Source: Escherichia coli
Lineage (GTDB): Bacteria > Pseudomonadota > Gammaproteobacteria > Enterobacterales > Enterobacteriaceae
Strand: one strand, 5' to 3'
DNA length: 14,825 nucleotides
Assembly (NCBI RefSeq): GCF_044324875.1
Contig: NZ_CP172189.1
A program made the translations under genes and the position numbers. Below the pieces are notes generated by a model. The model saw only the letters and a program-made list of their open reading frames with translations, was not told the origin of the DNA and did no database searches. Shown here one piece after another: positions 5,934-12,742 of this stretch; position 1 is the stretch's first letter; every line of letters begins with the position of its first letter.

Positions 5934-7487
5934 TTACCATCCCAGCGACGGGCCATCCAGTGTCCGTTCCTGTATTTCCAGATGGCGCTCACGCTCTAGG
6001 AATAGCTCATGTTCACGTTCCTGTATCAGTAGTTCGTCCCTTATCTCCTGCTCTCGCTGTATAACTGGCTCAAGTGTTCTGTCTGCTCGCTCAAGTGCTG
6101 CACCTGCTGACTCAACTGCATGACCCGCTCGTTCAGCATCGCGTTGTCCCGTTGCGTAAGCGAAAACATCTTCTGCAATTCCACGAAGGCGCTCTCCCAT
6201 TCGTTCAGCCGCTGCATATAGTCCTGTTGCAGCTGCTCTAAGGCGTTCAGCAAATGTGTTTCCAGCTCTGTCACTCTGTGTCACTCCTTCAGATGTACCC
6301 ACTCTTTCCCCTGAAAGGGAATCACCTCTGCTGATTTCCCGTACGGAAGGACCAGAAATTTCCTGTTCCCGTCCTGCACGAACTCCACGCCCCATGTCTT
6401 CGCGTTCAGTTTCTGCAATGTCTCTTCCTGCTTCCTGATATCTTCCAGGTTCGCCTGTATCCTCCCGCCAAGATACCAGAGCGTCCCGCCACTCGCGGTA
6501 AACAGGAGAAAGACTATCCCCAGTAACATCATGCCCGTATTCCCTGCCAGCTTTAACACGTCCTTCCTGTGCTGCCTCATCGCCTCTTTCACCCCTTCCC
6601 GGTGTTTCTCCAGCGATTCCTCTGTCGAGGCTGTGAACAGGGCTATAGCGTCTCTGATTTTCGTCTCGTTTGATGTCACAGCCTCGCTTACAGATTCGCC
6701 GAGCCTCCTGAACTCGTTGTTCAGCACTTTCTCTGTAGATTCGGCTCTCTCTTTCAGCTTTTTCTCGAACTCCGCGCCCGTCTGTAAAAGATTGCTCATA
6801 AAACGCTCCTTTCAGCCTGATATTCTTCCCGCCGTTCGGGTCTGCAATGCTGATGCTGCTTCGCGTCACCCTGACCACTTCAAGCCCCGCCTCTGTGAGC
6901 GCCTGAATCACATCCTGACGGCCTTTTATCTCCCCTACATGATAAAGAGCGTCTATCCCGCGTGTGACGCTCTCAGCAAGCGCCTGTTTCGTTTCCGGCA
7001 GGTTATCAGAGAGAGTCAGTATCCGGCGGTTCTCCGGGGCGTTGGGGTCATGCAGCCCGTAATGGTGATTCACCAGCGTCTGCCAGGCATCAATTCTCGG
7101 CCTGTCTGCCCGGTCGTAGTACGGCTGGAGACGTTTTCCGGTCTGTAGCTCCATGTTCGGAATGACAAAATTCAGCTCAAGCCGTCCCTTGTCCTGGTGC
7201 TCCACCCACAGGATGCTGTACTGATTCTTTTCGAGACCTGGCATCAGTACGCGCTCAAAGCTCGCCATCACTTTTTCACGTCCTCCCGGCGGCAGCTCCT
7301 TCTCCGCGAACGACAGAACGCCTGACGTGTATTTCTTCGCAAATGGCGTGGCATCGATGAGTTCCCGGACTTCTTCCGGATTACCCTGAAGCACCGTTGC
7401 GCCTTCGCGGTTACGCTCCCTCCCCAGCAGGTAATCAACCGGACCACTGCCACCACCTTTTCCCCTGGCATGAAATTTAACTATCAT
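5934..7487 (-). CDS. mbeA: ColE1-type mobilisation relaxase MbeA (MOB-HEN family), 517 aa
   Basis: MIVKFHARGKGGGSGPVDYLLGRERNREGATVLQGNPEEVRELIDA... is the MbeA N-terminal relaxase domain; the C-terminal half is Arg/Glu-rich. The ORF-track start (7535) is a 16-codon upstream extension; the true ATG is at 7487 and overlaps the mbeC stop. Confidence 0.9.
   Translation of the reverse strand: MIVKFHARGKGGGSGPVDYLLGRERNREGATVLQGNPEEVRELIDATPFAKKYTSGVLSFAEKELPPGGREKVMASFERVLMPGLEKNQYSILWVEHQDKGRLELNFVIPNMELQTGKRLQPYYDRADRPRIDAWQTLVNHHYGLHDPNAPENRRILTLSDNLPETKQALAESVTRGIDALYHVGEIKGRQDVIQALTEAGLEVVRVTRSSISIADPNGGKNIRLKGAFYEQSFTDGRGVREKAERESRIYRESAEQRVQEARRICKRGCDIKRDENQRRYSPVHSLDRGIAGETPGRGERGDEAAQEGRVKAGREYGHDVTGDSLSPVYREWRDALVSWREDTGEPGRYQEAGRDIAETEREDMGRGVRAGREQEISGPSVREISRGDSLSGERVGTSEGVTQSDRAGNTFAERLRAAATGLYAAAERMGERLRGIAEDVFAYATGQRDAERAGHAVESAGAALERADRTLEPVIQREQEIRDELLIQEREHELFLERERHLEIQERTLDGPSLGW
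6041..6274 (-). CDS. mbeD: MbeD, 77-aa mobilisation protein nested inside mbeA in another frame; GTG start
   Basis: MTELETHLLNALEQLQQDYMQRLNEWESAF...; GAAGGAG ribosome-binding site 9 nt upstream of GTG at 6274; same arrangement as the ColE1 mob region. Confidence 0.7.
   Translation of the reverse strand: MTELETHLLNALEQLQQDYMQRLNEWESAFVELQKMFSLTQRDNAMLNERVMQLSQQVQHLSEQTEHLSQLYSESRR
6281..6799 (-). CDS. mbeB: MbeB, 172-aa mobilisation protein with one predicted TM segment, nested inside mbeA in another frame
   Basis: MSNLLQTGAEFEKKLKERAESTEK...MMLLGIVFLLFTASGGTLWYLGG...; AAGGAG ribosome-binding site 8 nt upstream of ATG at 6799. Confidence 0.75.
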   Translation of the reverse strand: MSNLLQTGAEFEKKLKERAESTEKVLNNEFRRLGESVSEAVTSNETKIRDAIALFTASTEESLEKHREGVKEAMRQHRKDVLKLAGNTGMMLLGIVFLLFTASGGTLWYLGGRIQANLEDIRKQEETLQKLNAKTWGVEFVQDGNRKFLVLPYGKSAEVIPFQGKEWVHLKE

Positions 7488-7824
7488 CCCGCGCCCCCTG
7501 TTCCCTGACGGCCAGACGCAGCCGGCGCAGCTCATCCCCGATGGCCATCAGTGCGGCCACCACCTGAACCCGATCACCGGAAGACCACTGCCCGCTGTTC
7601 ACCTTCCTCGCGGTCTGATTCAGGTTATTCCCGATGGCGGCCAGCTGACGCAGTAACGGCGGTGCCAGTGTCGGCAGCTTCCCGGAACGGGCAACCGGCT
7701 CCCCCAGGCAGACCCGCCGCATCCATACCGCCAGTTGTTTACCCTCACAGCGTTCCAGTAACCGGGCATGTTCATCATCAGTAACCCGTATCGTGAGCAT
7801 CCTCTCGCGTTTCATCGGTATCAT
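7477..7824 (-). CDS. mbeC: MbeC/MobC-type relaxosome accessory protein (ribbon-helix-helix)
   Basis: ...MLTIRVTDDEHARLLERCEGKQLAVWMRRVCLGEPVARSGKLPT...; stop overlaps the mbeA start. Start codon uncertain (ATG at 7833, 7824, 7815 or 7800); copy C lacks the 7833 start in frame. Confidence 0.85.
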   Translation of the reverse strand: MIPMKRERMLTIRVTDDEHARLLERCEGKQLAVWMRRVCLGEPVARSGKLPTLAPPLLRQLAAIGNNLNQTARKVNSGQWSSGDRVQVVAALMAIGDELRRLRLAVREQGARDDS

Positions 7825-7864
7825 TACCCCCATGAACAGAAATCCCCCTTACACGGAGGCATCA

Positions 7865-8056
7865 GTGACTAAACAGGAAAAAACCGCCCTTAACATGGCC
7901 CGCTTCATCAGAGGCCAGACATTAACGCTGCTGGAGAAACTCAACGAACTGGACGTGGATGAACAGGCAGATATCTGTGAATCGCTTCACGACCACGCCG
8001 ATGAGCTTTACCGCAGCTGCCTCGCACGTTTCGGGGATGACGGTGAAAACCTCTGA
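7865..8056 (+). CDS. rop: Rop/Rom, 63-aa RNA I-RNA II pairing modulator (four-helix bundle); GTG start
   Basis: V/MTKQEKTALNMARFIRGQTLTLLEKLNELDVDEQADICESLHDHADELYRSCLARFGDDGENL; GGAGG ribosome-binding site at 7855-7859. The ORF-track entry 7793-8056 is an upstream in-frame extension. Confidence 0.9.
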   Translation: MTKQEKTALNMARFIRGQTLTLLEKLNELDVDEQADICESLHDHADELYRSCLARFGDDGENL

Positions 8057-8164
8057 CACATGCAGCTCCCGGAGACGGACACAGCTTGTCTGTGAGCGGA
8101 TGCCGGGAGCAGACAAGCCCGTCAGGGCGCGTCAGCAGGTGTTAGCGGGTGTCGGGGCGCAGCC

Positions 8165-8260
8165 CTGACCCAGTCACGTAGCGATAGCGGAGTGTATACT
8201 AGCTTAACTATGCGGCATCAGTGCGGATTGTATGAAAAGTGCACCATAGCCGATGTGAAA
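8165..8260. other. oriT/bom (basis of mobility) region of module B with the nic-site motif
   Basis: cagtcacgtagcgatagcggagtgtatactAgcttaactatgcggc matches the pBR322/ColE1 bom nic region, between rop and the origin. Confidence 0.7.
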
Positions 8261-8439
8261 TGCCGCACAGATGCGTAAGGAGAAAATGCAACTTCCGACA
8301 CTCTTCCGCTTCCTCGCTCACTGACTCGCTACGCTCGGTCGTTCGGCTGCGGCGAGCGGTACCGGCGCACTCAAAGGCGGTAATACGGTTATCCACAGAA
8401 TCAGGGGAGAAGGCCGGAAAGAACATGTGAGCAAAAAGG

Positions 8440-9030
8440 CAAAGGCCAACGAAAGGCCGCGCCGCTGGCGTTTTTCCATAGGCTCCGCCCCCCTGACGAG
8501 CATCACAAAAATCGACGCTCAAGTCAGAGGTGGCGAAACCCGACAGGACTATAAAGATACCAGGCGTTTCCCCCTGGAAGCTCCCTCGTGCGCTCTCCTG
8601 TTCCGACCCTGCCGCTTACCGGATACCTGTCCGCCTTTCTCCCTTCGGGAAGCGTGGCGCTTTCTCATAGCTCACGCTGTTGGTATCTCGGCTTGGTGTA
8701 GGTCGTTCGCTCCAAGCTGGGCTGTGTGCACGAACCCCCCGTTCAGCCCGACCGCTGCGCCTTATCCGGTAACTATCGTCTTGAGTCCAACCCGGTAAGG
8801 CACGCCTTAACGCCACTGGCAGCAGCCACTGGTAACCGGATTAGCAGAGCGATGATGGCACAAACGGTGCTACAGAGTTCTTGAAGTAGTGGCCCGACTA
8901 CGGCTACACTGAAAGGACAGTATTTGGTATCTGCGCTCTGCTGAAGCCAGTTACCTTGGTTAAGCAGTTCCCCAACTGACCTAACCTTCGATCAAACCGC
9001 CTCCCCAGGCGGTTTTTTCGTTTACAGGCA
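8440..9030 (-). other. ColE1-type origin of replication, copy B (RNA II primer region, transcribed on the minus strand)
   Basis: Near-identity to the pMB1/pBR322 ori body (ggcgtttttccataggctccgcccccctgacgagcatcacaaaaatcgacgctcaagtcagaggtggcgaaacccgacaggactataaagataccaggcg...). Confidence 0.9.
8917..9024 (+). ncRNA. RNA I of origin copy B, with stem-loops 2 and 3 different from copy A
   Basis: Starts acagtatttggtatctgcgctctgctgaagccagttacctt as in copy A, then diverges (ggttaagcagttccccaactgacctaaccttcgatcaaaccgcctccccaggcggttttttcgttt). RNA II promoter follows at 9026-9075 on the minus strand. Confidence 0.75.
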
Positions 9031-9080
9031 GCAGATTACGCGCAGAAAAAAAGGATCTCAAGAAGATCCTTTTAACTTTT

Positions 9081-9221
9081 CTACTGAACCGCGATCCCCG
9101 TCAGTTTAGAAGAGGAGGATGGTGCGACAGTCCCTCCCTGAACATCGCGGATGTAATTAGCTTGGCAGCCTGATAGCAAAGCCATCAAGACAAGCATCCC
9201 TCCTGATAATATCATTTTCAT
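9081..9221 (-). CDS. Colicin lysis (release) lipoprotein, 46 aa, of the second colicin locus
   Basis: Hand-translated [46 protein letters not shown]; lipobox LLSGC; GAGG ribosome-binding site upstream. Mature part almost identical to Kil of module A. Confidence 0.8.
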
Positions 9222-9340: not shown

Positions 9341-9865
9341 ATGAGAAAAGAGCACACTGACAATAAAGATTTAAACAGGACGCTTTTTTTGATTACTTTT
9401 GCAGGCATAACACCATTAATCATTATTTTTATAACTTATACATCAAACCCCAAGTTCTATTTAATTAGCATCATTTTTGATAACACACAAAATATACCTT
9501 CAATAATTTCCGCATACAATCCTGTGATGACAAAGGTGATGGATATCTACGGGAAAAGCGCTCCCTTACTGGCACTTATTGCTTTTACTCTCCAACTCCG
9601 CGACAGAAAGCTAGAGACAATAGCCAACAGAGAAAAACTAATTACTGCCAGCATATTTAGTCCATTTTTTTATGCTTTTTATGCATATTTCTTTCTGTGG
9701 AATAATTTCGAATTAACCACTGCAGGTAGGACTGTCAGATGGATGTCCGATAATGATTTTACTTTGTTTATTTTTTACGCCTGCCTCTATTTTTGCTCTT
9801 TCTTTATGACTTATGCTCTGTGTTATATTCCGGTTGTGTCATATAAACTCTGGAAAGAAAGGTAG
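9341..9865 (+). CDS. Immunity protein for an A-type pore-forming colicin (colicin A/B/N/U/Y class), 174 aa, four predicted TM helices
   Basis: 174-aa aromatic-rich protein with four hydrophobic segments, convergent with a colicin pore-domain remnant and next to a lysis gene; GGAGA ribosome-binding site at 9325-9329. Which colicin it serves cannot be decided from memory. Confidence 0.75.
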   Translation: MRKEHTDNKDLNRTLFLITFAGITPLIIIFITYTSNPKFYLISIIFDNTQNIPSIISAYNPVMTKVMDIYGKSAPLLALIAFTLQLRDRKLETIANREKLITASIFSPFFYAFYAYFFLWNNFELTTAGRTVRWMSDNDFTLFIFYACLYFCSFFMTYALCYIPVVSYKLWKER

Positions 9866-9892: not shown

Positions 9893-10103
9893 TTAATACG
9901 CAGGGCGAATAATTTCGTTATTTAACCTGTCTATAAATTTGTCATCAATCAATGCTCCAATAAAACTGGCTATAATAATACCGATAATCCCTACGACTGC
10001 AGCTGATGCCCCCACAGCAAGCAGGTAAGCTCCAAGGGTGGCAGAAAAAATAGCAAGAGCCACAGCAGAAGCAATACCACTGACAACCCAGGACTCGACC
10101 TCC
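9893..10103 (-). pseudogene. 3' remnant (~69 codons) of a pore-forming colicin gene: hydrophobic hairpin and C-terminus of the channel domain; the 5' part is replaced by an IS21-family element
   Basis: ...EVESWVVSGIASAVALAIFSATLGAYLLAVGASAAVVGIIGIIIASFIGALIDDKFIDRLNNEIIRPAY resembles the C-terminal hairpin and end of colicin channel domains (compare the colicin E1 C-terminus in this window). Upstream codons of the track ORF (MMPNCDRRWMPNHDRF...) come from IS terminal repeats. Confidence 0.6.
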
Positions 10104-10123
10104 TGCAAAATGGCATCTGAATC

Positions 10124-10232
10124 GATCGCAGTTTGGCATTCGAATCGATCATGATTTGGCATCCATCTCCGATCACAGTTTGGCATCACAATCGATCACG
10201 ATTTGGCATGCTTCCGATCATTGATTGGCATC
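10124..10232 (+). repeat. Five direct repeats (~23-bp period) of CGATCANNRTTTGGCAT at the IS left end; likely transposase binding sites
   Basis: Copies at 10124-10140, 10147-10163, 10171-10187, 10194-10210 and 10216-10232, with related copies in inverted orientation at the right end (12680-12730). Confidence 0.7.
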
Positions 10233-10305
10233 CTGCCAGTCACTCCGGGAATTAACTCTTTTCACCACAGTCTCCATTGCCGTGTTTAAACCAGTGGAGA
10301 CGTCA

Positions 10306-11871
10306 ATGTCCAGAAAGAGAAAATCCAGGAGCACTATGGAAACCTGTTTTAAGATCCTTCAGCTCAAGTTCGACAAGAAGCTGACTAACCGTTGTATCGG
10401 ACTGACGTTACACATCAGCGCCTCAACCGTTTTTGAGGTTCTTGCCCGCTTCAAAGCCTCTTCTCTGTCATGGCCATTACCTGCTGATATATCCCATGAC
10501 ACGCTGGAGAAACTCATTTTTCCGCCCAAAGACACCTTTGCATCAGAGCTTGTAATGCCTGACATGTTGTACTTCGATACGGAAATGAGAAAACCAGGTG
10601 TGACGCGGCAACTGTTGTGGATGGAATACAAGGCACAGGCGGGTAACAAAGCGATGGGATACTCGCACTTCTGCCGTTGCTACCGGGAGTGGAAAAAAAC
10701 GCGACGTCTCTCCATGCGCCAGGAGCATCGTGCCGGCGAAAAGCTTTTTATCGACTTCTGTGGTCCTACGGTTCCTGTTATTAATCCGGACACCGGTGAG
10801 ATACGCCGCGTGGCAATCTTCGTGGCCGTAATGGGGGCGTCCAACTATACCTACGTTGAAGCGTGCGAAGGTCAGGACATGATGTCATGGTTAAATGCCC
10901 ACAGCCGTTGCCTGACCTTCCTGGGCGGCGTACCGAAGCTGCTCATCCCCGATAACCTCAGAAGCGCAGTGAAAAAGGCCGATCGATATGAGCCTGTCAT
11001 CAACGACAGTTATCAGGCACTGGCTGAGCACTATGGCACGGTTATCATCCCGGCCCGACCACGCAAACCTAAAGATAAACCAAAAGCAGAAAACGGCGTC
11101 CTCATCGTTGAACGATGGCTTCTTGCCCGCATCCGTAATGAAACCTTCCACACGCTCAGGGCGCTGAATGCGCGCCTTAGGGAGTTACTGACAGACATGA
11201 ATAACCGGCCAATGAAGGGGTACGGCAATCAAACCCGTGCAGAACGCTTCCGCATACTGGATGCGCCAGCACTCTCTCCGCTGCCTCTGGCACCTTATGA
11301 ATACACGGAATACAAAGCTGTGAAGGTTGGCCCTGACTACCACGTTGAATATGCCCGTCACTGGTACTCCGTTCCACACGAACTGGTCGGTCAGCGTCTG
11401 TCACTGAAGGCGGGGCAGTCGGTGGTACAGCTCTGGCACAAGGGGCAGTGTGTGGCGCAACATCCGCGCAGCACACATGAATATAAACACACAACCAATC
11501 CGCTTCACATGCCAGAGCGCCACCGGCAGCACGGGACATGGACACCGGAACGCCTGATCGAGCAGGGAAAACGTACGGGCCCGTCCACAGGCCGGGTGGT
11601 TGAATCCATGCTGAAGGCAAAACCCCATCCGGAACTGGCTTATCGTGCAGTTCTGGGGCTGCTGGCACTTCAGAAAAAATACGGCCCGGAACGGCTGGAA
11701 AAGGCCTGTTACGTTGCCCTGCACTATAACGCCCCTGACAGACGCTTTATCGACAATCTGCTGCGTCACCATCGGGAGAACCTGGAGCTTCCATTATCCC
11801 GCCAGGGCGAACAACATCCGGCATATGCTTCAGAGCATGAAAACCTGCGTGGTCCGGGCTACTACCACTGA
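10306..11871 (+). CDS. istA: IS21-family transposase IstA, 521 aa from ATG at 10306
   Basis: N-terminal HTH region, DDE-type catalytic core, typical IstA length; GGAGA ribosome-binding site 7 nt upstream. The track start at 10225 is a TTG inside the terminal repeats and is unlikely to be real. Confidence 0.85.
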   Translation: MSRKRKSRSTMETCFKILQLKFDKKLTNRCIGLTLHISASTVFEVLARFKASSLSWPLPADISHDTLEKLIFPPKDTFASELVMPDMLYFDTEMRKPGVTRQLLWMEYKAQAGNKAMGYSHFCRCYREWKKTRRLSMRQEHRAGEKLFIDFCGPTVPVINPDTGEIRRVAIFVAVMGASNYTYVEACEGQDMMSWLNAHSRCLTFLGGVPKLLIPDNLRSAVKKADRYEPVINDSYQALAEHYGTVIIPARPRKPKDKPKAENGVLIVERWLLARIRNETFHTLRALNARLRELLTDMNNRPMKGYGNQTRAERFRILDAPALSPLPLAPYEYTEYKAVKVGPDYHVEYARHWYSVPHELVGQRLSLKAGQSVVQLWHKGQCVAQHPRSTHEYKHTTNPLHMPERHRQHGTWTPERLIEQGKRTGPSTGRVVESMLKAKPHPELAYRAVLGLLALQKKYGPERLEKACYVALHYNAPDRRFIDNLLRHHRENLELPLSRQGEQHPAYASEHENLRGPGYYH

Positions 11872-11886
11872 CAGAAGGAACAACAG

Positions 11887-12643
11887 TATGAGTGATAACC
11901 TGTTAAACAAACTGACCCAACTGAAACTCCCGGCGATGGCCGGGAGCCTGATACGGCAGCGGGAAACGCCTCAGACCTACGACGAACTGTCGTTCGAGGA
12001 AAGGCTGACGCTGCTGGTTGATGACGAGCTTCTGAGCAGGGAAAACAGCCGTGTGGCACGGTTGAGAAAAAATGCCGGCCTGAAATACCAGGCAACACCG
12101 GAAGGGCTGCGCTATCCGGCCTCAAGAGGTCTGCGGGCTGAACAGATGAGAGAACTGCTGAACGGCCACTACATAACCCACAGGAAAAACCTGCTGATAA
12201 CCGGTCCGACAGGATGTGGCAAGAGCTGGATAGCCAATGCGCTGGGCGAACAGGCATGTCGACAGAAACACAGCGTCCGGTACTGTAGAACCGGGCGATT
12301 ACTGGAACAACTGGCTCAGGGACGTGTTGATGGCAGCTGGCTGAAATATCTGAAACAGTTGCAAAAAATACAGGTTCTAATCCTGGACGATCTGGGGCTG
12401 GAACAGTTAAGTAACGCCCAGTGTAATGACCTTCTGGAGCTCATAGAGGATCGTTACGGACAAAGCAGCACGATAGTGGTAAGCCAGTTCCCGGTAGATA
12501 AATGGCATGGTCTGATGGAGAACCCAACAACAGCAGATGCCATCCTGGACAGACTGGTACATAACTCACACCGAGTGGTCCTTCAGGGAGAGTCACTGAG
12601 GAAAAATCCCCCGGTAGTGGAAAGCAGCGAAAAAACGCGTTAA
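11887..12643 (+). CDS. istB: IS21-family ATP-binding helper IstB (AAA+), 251 aa
   Basis: MSDNLLNKLTQLKLPAMAGSL..., Walker A GPTGCGKS, Walker B ILILDDLG; GAAGGAA ribosome-binding site. The track ORF 11645-12643 is an upstream extension overlapping istA. Confidence 0.9.
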
Positions 12644-12742
12644 AAAGCGGTAGAAAAAGTTAAGTTCCCGGTTGATCGAATGGATGCGAATCGCTGATCG
12701 GACTTCGATGCCAATCCGTGATCGAATAGAGCGGAATACGCA

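Follow-up and report, generated by a model that had tools for sequence, protein, structure and literature searches.

The window (the whole stretch of DNA analysed here, 14,825 nucleotides of contig NZ_CP172189.1 from Escherichia coli) carries on its minus strand the mobilization genes mbeC, mbeA, mbeB and mbeD, of which mbeB and mbeD lie entirely inside mbeA. The features of the locus are the following:

7477-7833, minus strand: mbeC, MobC/NikA-type relaxosome accessory protein
5934-7487, minus strand: mbeA, MOB-HEN relaxase, the outer gene of the nest
6801-7487, minus strand: mbeA codons 1-229, relaxase domain, single-frame (omega in the mbeA frame, omega_A, 0.09-0.11; the neutral +1 frame serves as control)
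6806-6812, minus strand: Shine-Dalgarno sequence of mbeB, AAAGGAG, 6 nt 5' of the mbeB ATG
6281-6799, minus strand: mbeB, nested in mbeA in the +1 phase
6644-6799, minus strand: first dual-coded segment, mbeB codons 1-52 over MbeA aa 230-282, both frames constrained
6284-6643, minus strand: second dual-coded segment, mbeB codons 53-172 over MbeA aa ~283-402, mbeB frame constrained and MbeA near-neutral
6284-6289, minus strand: Shine-Dalgarno sequence of mbeD, AAGGAG, 9 nt 5' of the mbeD GTG and adjoining the mbeB stop
6041-6274, minus strand: mbeD, nested in mbeA in the +1 phase, MbeD_MobD family, coiled-coil-like product
5934-6040, minus strand: 3' tail of mbeA, aa 483-517 and stop, constrained in the mbeA frame only

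mbeA has 517 codons (ATG at 7487, TAA at 5934-5936), mbeB has 172 (ATG at 6799, TGA at 6281-6283) and mbeD has 77 (GTG at 6274, TAA at 6041-6043). The start positions of mbeB and mbeD equal 1 mod 3 and that of mbeA equals 2 mod 3; the nested pair is therefore in one phase, +1 relative to mbeA. This confirms the coordinates and the single alternative frame that an earlier note, made from the sequence alone, had given for mbeB and the GTG-initiated mbeD. The mbeB stop codon is followed by 6 nt and then by the mbeD start. At the other end of the nest, the 3' end of mbeC overlaps the start of mbeA by 11 nt; the mbeC start in RefSeq is ATG 7800 (107 aa).

The same note credited each nested gene with a strong Shine-Dalgarno sequence of its own, and both are indeed present in the window. 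That of mbeB is made of the mbeA codons K226-G227-A228, and the mbeB ATG arises across mbeA codons Y230 and E231 (TAT GAG). The MbeA segment R224-L-K-G-A-F-Y-E231 (AGG CTG AAA GGA GCG TTT TAT GAG), which spans the ribosome-binding site and the start of mbeB, consists mostly of residues that are unchanged, or almost unchanged, across 36 diverse MbeA sequences.

Pfam assigns MbeA to Relaxase (PF03432, E 4e-7), MbeB to MbeB_N (PF04837, E 6e-22), MbeD to MbeD_MobD (PF04899, E 3e-34) and the mbeC product to MobC (PF05713) and NikA-like (PF21983). The catalytic residues Y19, H97, E104 and N106 of MbeA are present, and are invariant in 36 diverse relatives; MbeA has the motif I tyrosine of HUH-type relaxases, with H-E-N replacing the three histidines of motif III. 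The gene of the ribbon-helix-helix accessory protein MobC/MbeC lies directly 5' of the relaxase gene, and mbeB and mbeD are nested in the latter, as in ColE1-type (MOB-HEN / MOBP5) modules. The best structural match of the N-terminal domain of MbeA is the relaxase domain of R1162 MobA (2NS6, probability 1.00). MbeB begins with a helical domain (MbeB_N), continues with a hydrophobic segment that occupies aa 89-107 in the window and ends with a C-terminal domain; this architecture is kept in relatives despite identities of 10-46%. In the literature quoted in PMC5935869, MbeB figures as a relaxosome component and MbeD as a putative entry-exclusion protein.

The C-terminal half of MbeA had been described as rich in Arg and Glu and of low complexity, which the residue composition and the entropy bear out. 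Residues 230-517 contain 15.6% R, 14.9% E, 11.1% G and 10.1% A, compared to 8.3% R and 8.3% E in residues 1-229, and the windowed entropy is 3.2-3.7 bits, compared to 3.8-3.9 bits in residues 1-229. The AlphaFold model of MbeA has moderate to high pLDDT at residues 1-285, with a confidently predicted helix at 239-280, pLDDT below 50 at 287-410, which is predicted to be disordered, and a long helix predicted with moderate to high confidence at 408-510.

The window is of mixed origin: at positions 1-3614 and 12743-14825 it is 99.4-99.9% identical to ColE1, and positions ~3615-9146, which hold the intact mob module, derive from a colicin-10-type plasmid. With regard to a cognate oriT (bom), the segment homologous to ColE1 520-3738 is present in the window (94.7%). 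An ISSso4-like element of the IS21 family, at ~10101-12753, adjoins a second mbeA, which is of ColE1 type (99.7% ColE1-like) and is cut at about codon 220-225; this copy is therefore devoid of mbeB and mbeD. Over the mob region, the window is 100% identical to 8.9-kb colicin-10 plasmids (CP070397.1, NZ_CP100535.1), and matches are found in more than 1500 PLSDB plasmids and in 842 of 5426 complete E. coli genomes.

Conservation of the nest in relatives

A profile of the relaxase domain was used to collect 80 genome-contig loci, which were considered along with 21 plasmid loci. The 72 genome loci that are matched from relaxase residue 1 were scored; 53 of them have a complete mbeA ORF (at least 400 codons), and in the other 19 mbeA runs off the contig, is truncated or is broken. 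The hosts are Enterobacterales, Vibrio, Aeromonas, Halomonadaceae, Pseudomonas, Neisseria, Acinetobacter, Moraxella and Aggregatibacter, and the identity decreases to ~48% in the N-terminal domain and to 31% over full-length MbeA.

mbeB is in the +1 frame, with a start 688-700 nt from that of mbeA, in 74/74 loci (21 plasmid and 53 genome loci). mbeD comes after mbeB, with no change of frame, in each of the 21 plasmid loci; among the 53 genome loci, an MbeD HMM detects it in 47 and leaves it undetected in the six most distant ones (Acinetobacter, Moraxella, Aggregatibacter and a Thiomargarita-labelled contig), where a coiled-coil-like ORF of ~65-75 codons occupies the same slot. The open mbeA frame measures 510-532 codons in 21/21 plasmid loci; among the 53 complete genome loci, it measures 466-541 codons in 51 and 419 codons in L081. 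Between close relatives, all indels are multiples of 3 (12, 21, 3, 6, 9, 15 and 27 nt); indels of other lengths are seen only where the divergent segment of mbeB aligns unreliably in pairs.

The start signals are more variable. No match of at least 4 nt to AGGAGG precedes 22 of 72 mbeB starts and 16 of 66 mbeD starts. The gap between the mbeB stop and the mbeD start is 0-9 nt in most lineages and 36-60 nt in one clade.

A search for an un-nested relative returned none among the complete genome loci (53/53 are nested). Three loci with a short or broken mbeA (L052, L078 and L090) were considered as un-nested cases and rejected, as they are truncations or assembly errors. The 267 clusters of the MbeB family that were found are all on small contigs. 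The nested layout appears to be ancient, with a range that takes in Enterobacterales as well as Moraxellaceae, Neisseria and Pasteurellaceae. Codon usage was dismissed as a clue to the direction of overprinting, since it would reflect present constraint and not ancestry.

Selection in each reading frame

Selection was examined in 72 distinct mbeA sequences. The geometry of the overlap is such that position 1 of an mbeA codon is position 3 of a codon of the nested gene. A multinomial fit to the polymorphic sites of 11 close plasmids validated the control region, but was unable to yield absolute omegas for the overlaps, since sites synonymous in both frames are almost absent there and one allele is a highly divergent recombinant. 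A pairwise Poisson model was therefore used instead, whose parameters are a rate for each pair, kappa and an omega for every combination of frame and segment; it is anchored on N-terminal synonymous sites and was applied to 27 or 21 independent close pairs. The differences per site at mbeA codon positions 1/2/3 (independent close pairs) and the omegas, whose ranges span two opposite pair-selection schemes, three divergence cut-offs and two baselines, are as follows:

Relaxase domain: 0.036/0.020/0.187; omega 0.09-0.11 in the mbeA frame, 1.2-1.5 in the +1 frame (control)
mbeB codons 1-52: 0.048/0.029/0.059; omega 0.15-0.36 in the mbeA frame, 0.20-0.44 in the nested frame
mbeB codons 53-172: 0.127/0.080/0.064; omega 0.68-1.18 in the mbeA frame, 0.23-0.52 in the nested frame
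mbeD overlap: 0.088/0.038/0.059; omega 0.45-0.75 in the mbeA frame, 0.23-0.40 in the nested frame
Post-mbeD tail: 0.048/0.085/0.209; omega 0.15-0.55 in the mbeA frame, 1.2-1.8 in the +1 frame

The wobble signal therefore shifts to the nested frame within the overlaps and returns to the mbeA frame after them, and the variation at mbeA synonymous sites is ~3-fold lower over exactly the nested span. In likelihood ratio tests, omega = 1 is rejected for the nested frame in all three overlap segments (p<1e-20). With omegas of 0.20-0.52, this comparison of dN/dS type across mob regions, of the kind that the earlier note had called for, therefore reveals purifying selection on the nested frames. The absolute values assume that the divergence time is the same all along mbeA within a pair, and these plasmids are mosaic: L015 and L020, for example, differ by 2.6% in the N-terminal domain and by 43.6% in mbeB codons 53-172. 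The omega_A of the MbeA linker is bounded just to ~0.7-1.1, because mosaicism was bracketed by two opposite pair-selection schemes. That the control +1 frame is slightly above 1 (1.2-1.5) indicates a modest mis-specification of the model.

Long ORFs do arise in alternative frames of this region, such as those at 7268-7471 (+1) and 6531-7148 (antisense), and mbeB and mbeD could likewise be products of chance or of annotation within a genuine relaxase gene. This idea has next to no chance of being correct. The nested genes have strong Pfam matches, and their frame and position are shared by every relative examined; their omega is well below 1, compared to ~1 in the control +1 frame, and the wobble position switches inside the overlaps. 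Staying open by chance is also improbable: when the MbeA codons are replaced by random synonymous ones, the +1 frame is open over the span of mbeB in 0/400 draws for the window (family median 0.03) and over that of mbeD in a fraction of 0.19 (median 0.12); nevertheless, both spans are open in all relatives. The frame-specific selection signal thus already refutes a chance origin, and mbeB and mbeD are real, conserved genes, selected in their own frame.

Other ORFs of the region were considered as genes and rejected. The antisense ORF 6531-7148 (plus strand) contains 3-10 stops in more distant relatives, and the +1 ORF 7268-7471 (67 codons) has an omega of 0.8-1.0 in the +1 frame and is missing from distant relatives. 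In the slot of "mbeE", the +1 ORF that begins at ATG 6010 stops after 4 codons, in the ColE1 reference as in the window, and the omega of the +1 frame in the tail (1.2-1.8) gives no sign of constraint.

The outer frame does not behave uniformly. Selection on mbeA within the overlap is clear at MbeA 230-282, where the constraint equals that on MbeB (omega_A 0.15-0.36), and over mbeD, where the constraint is moderate; at residues 283-402 omega_A depends on the pairs. The near-neutral region, MbeA ~283-402, coincides with the part of the AlphaFold model that is of low confidence (287-410), and the openness of the frame is its only clearly selected property. Over the last ~35 residues, constraint is seen in the mbeA frame alone; this tail (aa 483-517) forms the end of the long helix predicted at 408-510. 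The suggestion of the earlier note, that the C-terminal half of the relaxase is a tolerant carrier for the nested genes, thus holds for MbeA ~283-402 (omega_A 0.68-1.18, pLDDT <50 at 287-410) and fails for aa 230-282, for the mbeD overlap and for the tail.

When MbeB is resampled with synonymous codons, the mbeA frame is open in 0/400 draws for 21 of 22 diverse representatives; the same test with MbeD gives a median of 0.0075. In the actual sequences, the mbeA frame is open across mbeB in 72/72 cases: it is kept open far beyond chance. These data bear on the proposal that the long mbeA ORF is itself an artefact, with a relaxase that ends near residue 285, a meaningless stretch of 230 last codons and a correct "partial mbeA" in RefSeq. 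MbeA 283-402 is nearly neutral (omega 0.7-1.1) and predicted to be disordered, and the mbeA of many RefSeq records is limited to a 5' fragment, as this proposal would have it. However, mbeA is long and open in the relatives, which would happen by chance, given MbeB, with a probability below 0.003 per lineage; the tail after mbeD has the wobble pattern of the mbeA frame and an omega_A of 0.15-0.55; omega_A over mbeD is 0.45-0.75 (p~1e-9); and annotation pipelines are known to produce such truncated records as an artefact. A MbeA product of ~58 kDa was also reportedly described for ColE1 by Boyd, Archer and Sherratt in 1989, which counts against this proposal too. It is therefore very unlikely that the long ORF is spurious. 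Taken with the constraint on the tail, the openness of the mbeA frame speaks for a full-length MbeA that is produced and required, and whose middle part is a sequence-tolerant linker.

Proposed reading and expression

The locus is very likely a ColE1-type (MOB-HEN) operon, mbeC-mbeA, in which mbeB and mbeD are encoded inside mbeA in the +1 frame. A single mob mRNA would be read in two phases. A subset of ribosomes would start at the mbeA ATG (7487) and translate the 517 codons, while others would initiate internally at the mbeB ATG (6799), using the AAAGGAG inside the mbeA codons K226-G227-A228. After the mbeB TGA (6281-6283), translation would restart 6 nt further on, at the mbeD GTG (6274). 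We infer this re-initiation, or coupling, because the Shine-Dalgarno sequence of mbeD adjoins the stop codon of mbeB and because most lineages have a gap of 0-9 nt here; internal initiation and the coupling of mbeB to mbeD are thus suggested by the Shine-Dalgarno sequences and the spacing.

The nested genes could also be real and be transcribed from a promoter of their own inside mbeA, in which case the overlap would be plain compaction with no translational coupling. One weak sigma-70-like match lies 5' of mbeB (6968-6939, minus strand), and in one clade the mbeD start is 36-60 nt past the mbeB stop, which is too distant for tight coupling. However, the scan for promoters inside mbeA found nothing above chance (1 site, compared to 0.9 expected), most lineages have a purine run resembling a Shine-Dalgarno sequence at a fixed distance 5' of the mbeB ATG, and the short mbeB-mbeD gap prevails. 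Transcription of the nested genes from their own promoter therefore seems improbable, and translation of both phases from the mob mRNA is preferred.

Along the operon, constraint is distributed as follows. MbeA aa 230-282 and MbeB aa 1-52 are both under constraint. Next comes MbeA ~283-402, a predicted disordered linker that drifts almost freely and whose frame must remain open; its bases also encode the constrained, putatively membrane-spanning and C-terminal parts of MbeB. Further on, the C-terminal helix of MbeA and MbeD are both constrained, and the MbeA tail is constrained alone. It is reasonably likely that this distribution amounts to a three-layer split and not to a uniform carrier, the DNA of the middle layer belonging effectively to mbeB and the ~120-residue disordered linker of MbeA being kept open only so that the constrained C-terminal helix is tethered to the relaxase domain.

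Annotation, significance and known systems

In RefSeq/PGAP records, either mbeA is complete and the nested genes are missing, or mbeB and mbeD are present and mbeA is "partial" or "pseudo". This annotation artefact has been noted before for 487 plasmids (bioRxiv 10.1101/2023.11.08.566193). An annotation that is unable to represent the nest can mislead surveys of pseudogenes and of mobility.

The nested architecture has been known for decades, as it is the published arrangement of ColE1; the main value of the present analysis is confirmation, and the map of constraint region by region is a modest addition. A limited literature search found no published quantification of the three-layer split. 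If the split is true, MOB-HEN modules would be a tractable bacterial model of how overprinted genes share constraint. The map also shows which bases are doubly constrained, for the engineering or recoding of ColE1-type mob regions.

In RSF1010/R1162 (MOBQ), the accessory mobilization gene mobB is nested in the relaxase gene mobA in another frame. The relaxase domain of R1162 MobA shares its fold with that of MbeA (2NS6 is the best structural match), but the relaxase family is different, with a 3-His motif III and not HEN, and we know of no equivalent of mbeD in these plasmids.

Protein B of the cryptic plasmid of Neisseria gonorrhoeae (cppB) scores as a protein of the MbeB family (E~1e-30), and in the Neisseria loci L085-L087 a gene of the cppB type is nested in the +1 frame of a MbeA-type relaxase gene. 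This protein is distant (no BLASTP alignment to the MbeB of the window was reported), and the ORF in the MbeD slot of the Neisseria loci is longer (96-103 codons).

The mobA-mobD modules of the ColA/ColK/pCS36-4CPA type (MOB-HEN, ColE1 superfamily) have the same layout in every relative surveyed. In pCS36-4CPA, the 1548-nt mobA ORF encloses two ORFs wholly and overlaps one partly (PMC5935869). The relatives differ by up to ~50% divergence in the relaxase domain and by far more in MbeB, and by the 36-60 nt gap between mbeB and mbeD in some lineages.

The closest system is ColE1 itself (NC_001371), to which mbeA is 95.6% identical in nucleotides, with protein identities of 95.6% for MbeA, 97.7% for MbeB and 94.9% for MbeD. 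Its mobilization region, mbeA/mbeB/mbeC/mbeD, is said to have been described by Boyd, Archer and Sherratt in 1989. The earlier note held that the nest known from ColE1 is preserved intact here, and this is what the comparison shows: the gene set, the gene order, the +1 phase and the GTG start of mbeD are the same, mbeB starts at +688 and mbeD at +1213 of mbeA in both, and the two modules differ by point differences only.

Composite make-up of the window

The whole window looks like a cointegrate, in which a colicin-10-type 8.9-kb plasmid segment is flanked by ColE1 segments of 99.4–99.9% identity. The colicin-10-type segment has its own ColE1-like ori, rop and mob regions (94.7% identity to ColE1), and the window holds an additional (second) colicin immunity gene, PF03857. 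The segments considered for this make-up are 1-3614, 3615-9146, 9341-9865 and 12743-14825.

A second mob copy is found at 12729-13746 (minus strand), with 99.7% identity to ColE1, and it adjoins an insertion sequence:

13396-13746, minus: mbeC of the second copy
13403-12729, minus: mbeA of the second copy, codons 1 to ~225 only
~10101-12753: ISSso4-like IS21-family element
10225-11871: istA, in this element
11645-12643: istB, in this element

The 3' half of mbeA is gone from this copy, together with mbeB and mbeD.

Variation and further reading frames in the intact mob region

Codons 53-172 of mbeB (window ~6284-6643) form a mosaic, hypervariable spot. Four pairs of relative loci (L015/L020, L018/L022, L042/L047 and L010/L028) differ by 20–44% over these codons, versus 2–5% in the relaxase domain of the same pairs, a contrast which suggests that alleles have been exchanged here by recombination.

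Three further open reading frames overlap or follow mbeA:

5996-6010 and 5714-5992, minus: slot of a third +1-frame ORF, after mbeD
7268-7471, minus: +1 ORF of 67 codons, overlapping mbeA
6531-7148, plus: antisense ORF of 205 codons, overlapping mbeA

The first, possibly mbeE, is annotated in some relatives as a "mobilization protein" of 47–53 aa. In the window it starts with ATG (at 6010) and meets TAG after four codons, a short stop shared with the ColE1 reference; the +1 frame of the slot has an omega (per-frame selection ratio) of 1.2–1.8 and thus shows no sign of constraint. Conservation in distant relatives is lacking for both the 67-codon ORF and the antisense ORF, and no own-frame constraint was seen on the former.

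Since mbeB and mbeD share a frame, with only a few codons between them, an MbeB-MbeD fusion would result if the mbeB stop were lost or read through. Four MbeB-family proteins (P0013, P0026, P0037 and P0072) are 285–311 aa long, and in P0072 the Pfam domain of MbeD is present as well.

Annotation and hosts of the relatives

PGAP never annotates the nest in the RefSeq/PLSDB records of relatives. A record either gives mbeA in full and omits mbeB and mbeD, or lists these two and reduces mbeA to a 5' fragment that carries the flag "incomplete; partial in the middle of a contig" (compare, e.g., L002, L004, L005, L007, L008, L016 and L020 with L003, L006, L014 and L015). This artefact has also been reported for 487 plasmids (bioRxiv 10.1101/2023.11.08.566193).

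Some short contigs bear the host labels Rhizobium, Bradyrhizobium, Streptomyces, Trinickia, Bullifex and a Paceibacterota MAG. On these genome contigs (L023, L031, L044, L089, L039 and L048), mbeA is 75–98% identical to that of enterobacterial ColE1-type plasmids, which points to assembly contamination as the likely source.

The "cryptic plasmid protein B" (cppB) of Neisseria gonorrhoeae also scores as an MbeB-family protein (P0058-P0096) and, like mbeB, it is nested in the +1 frame of an MbeA-type relaxase in the Neisseria loci L085-L087.
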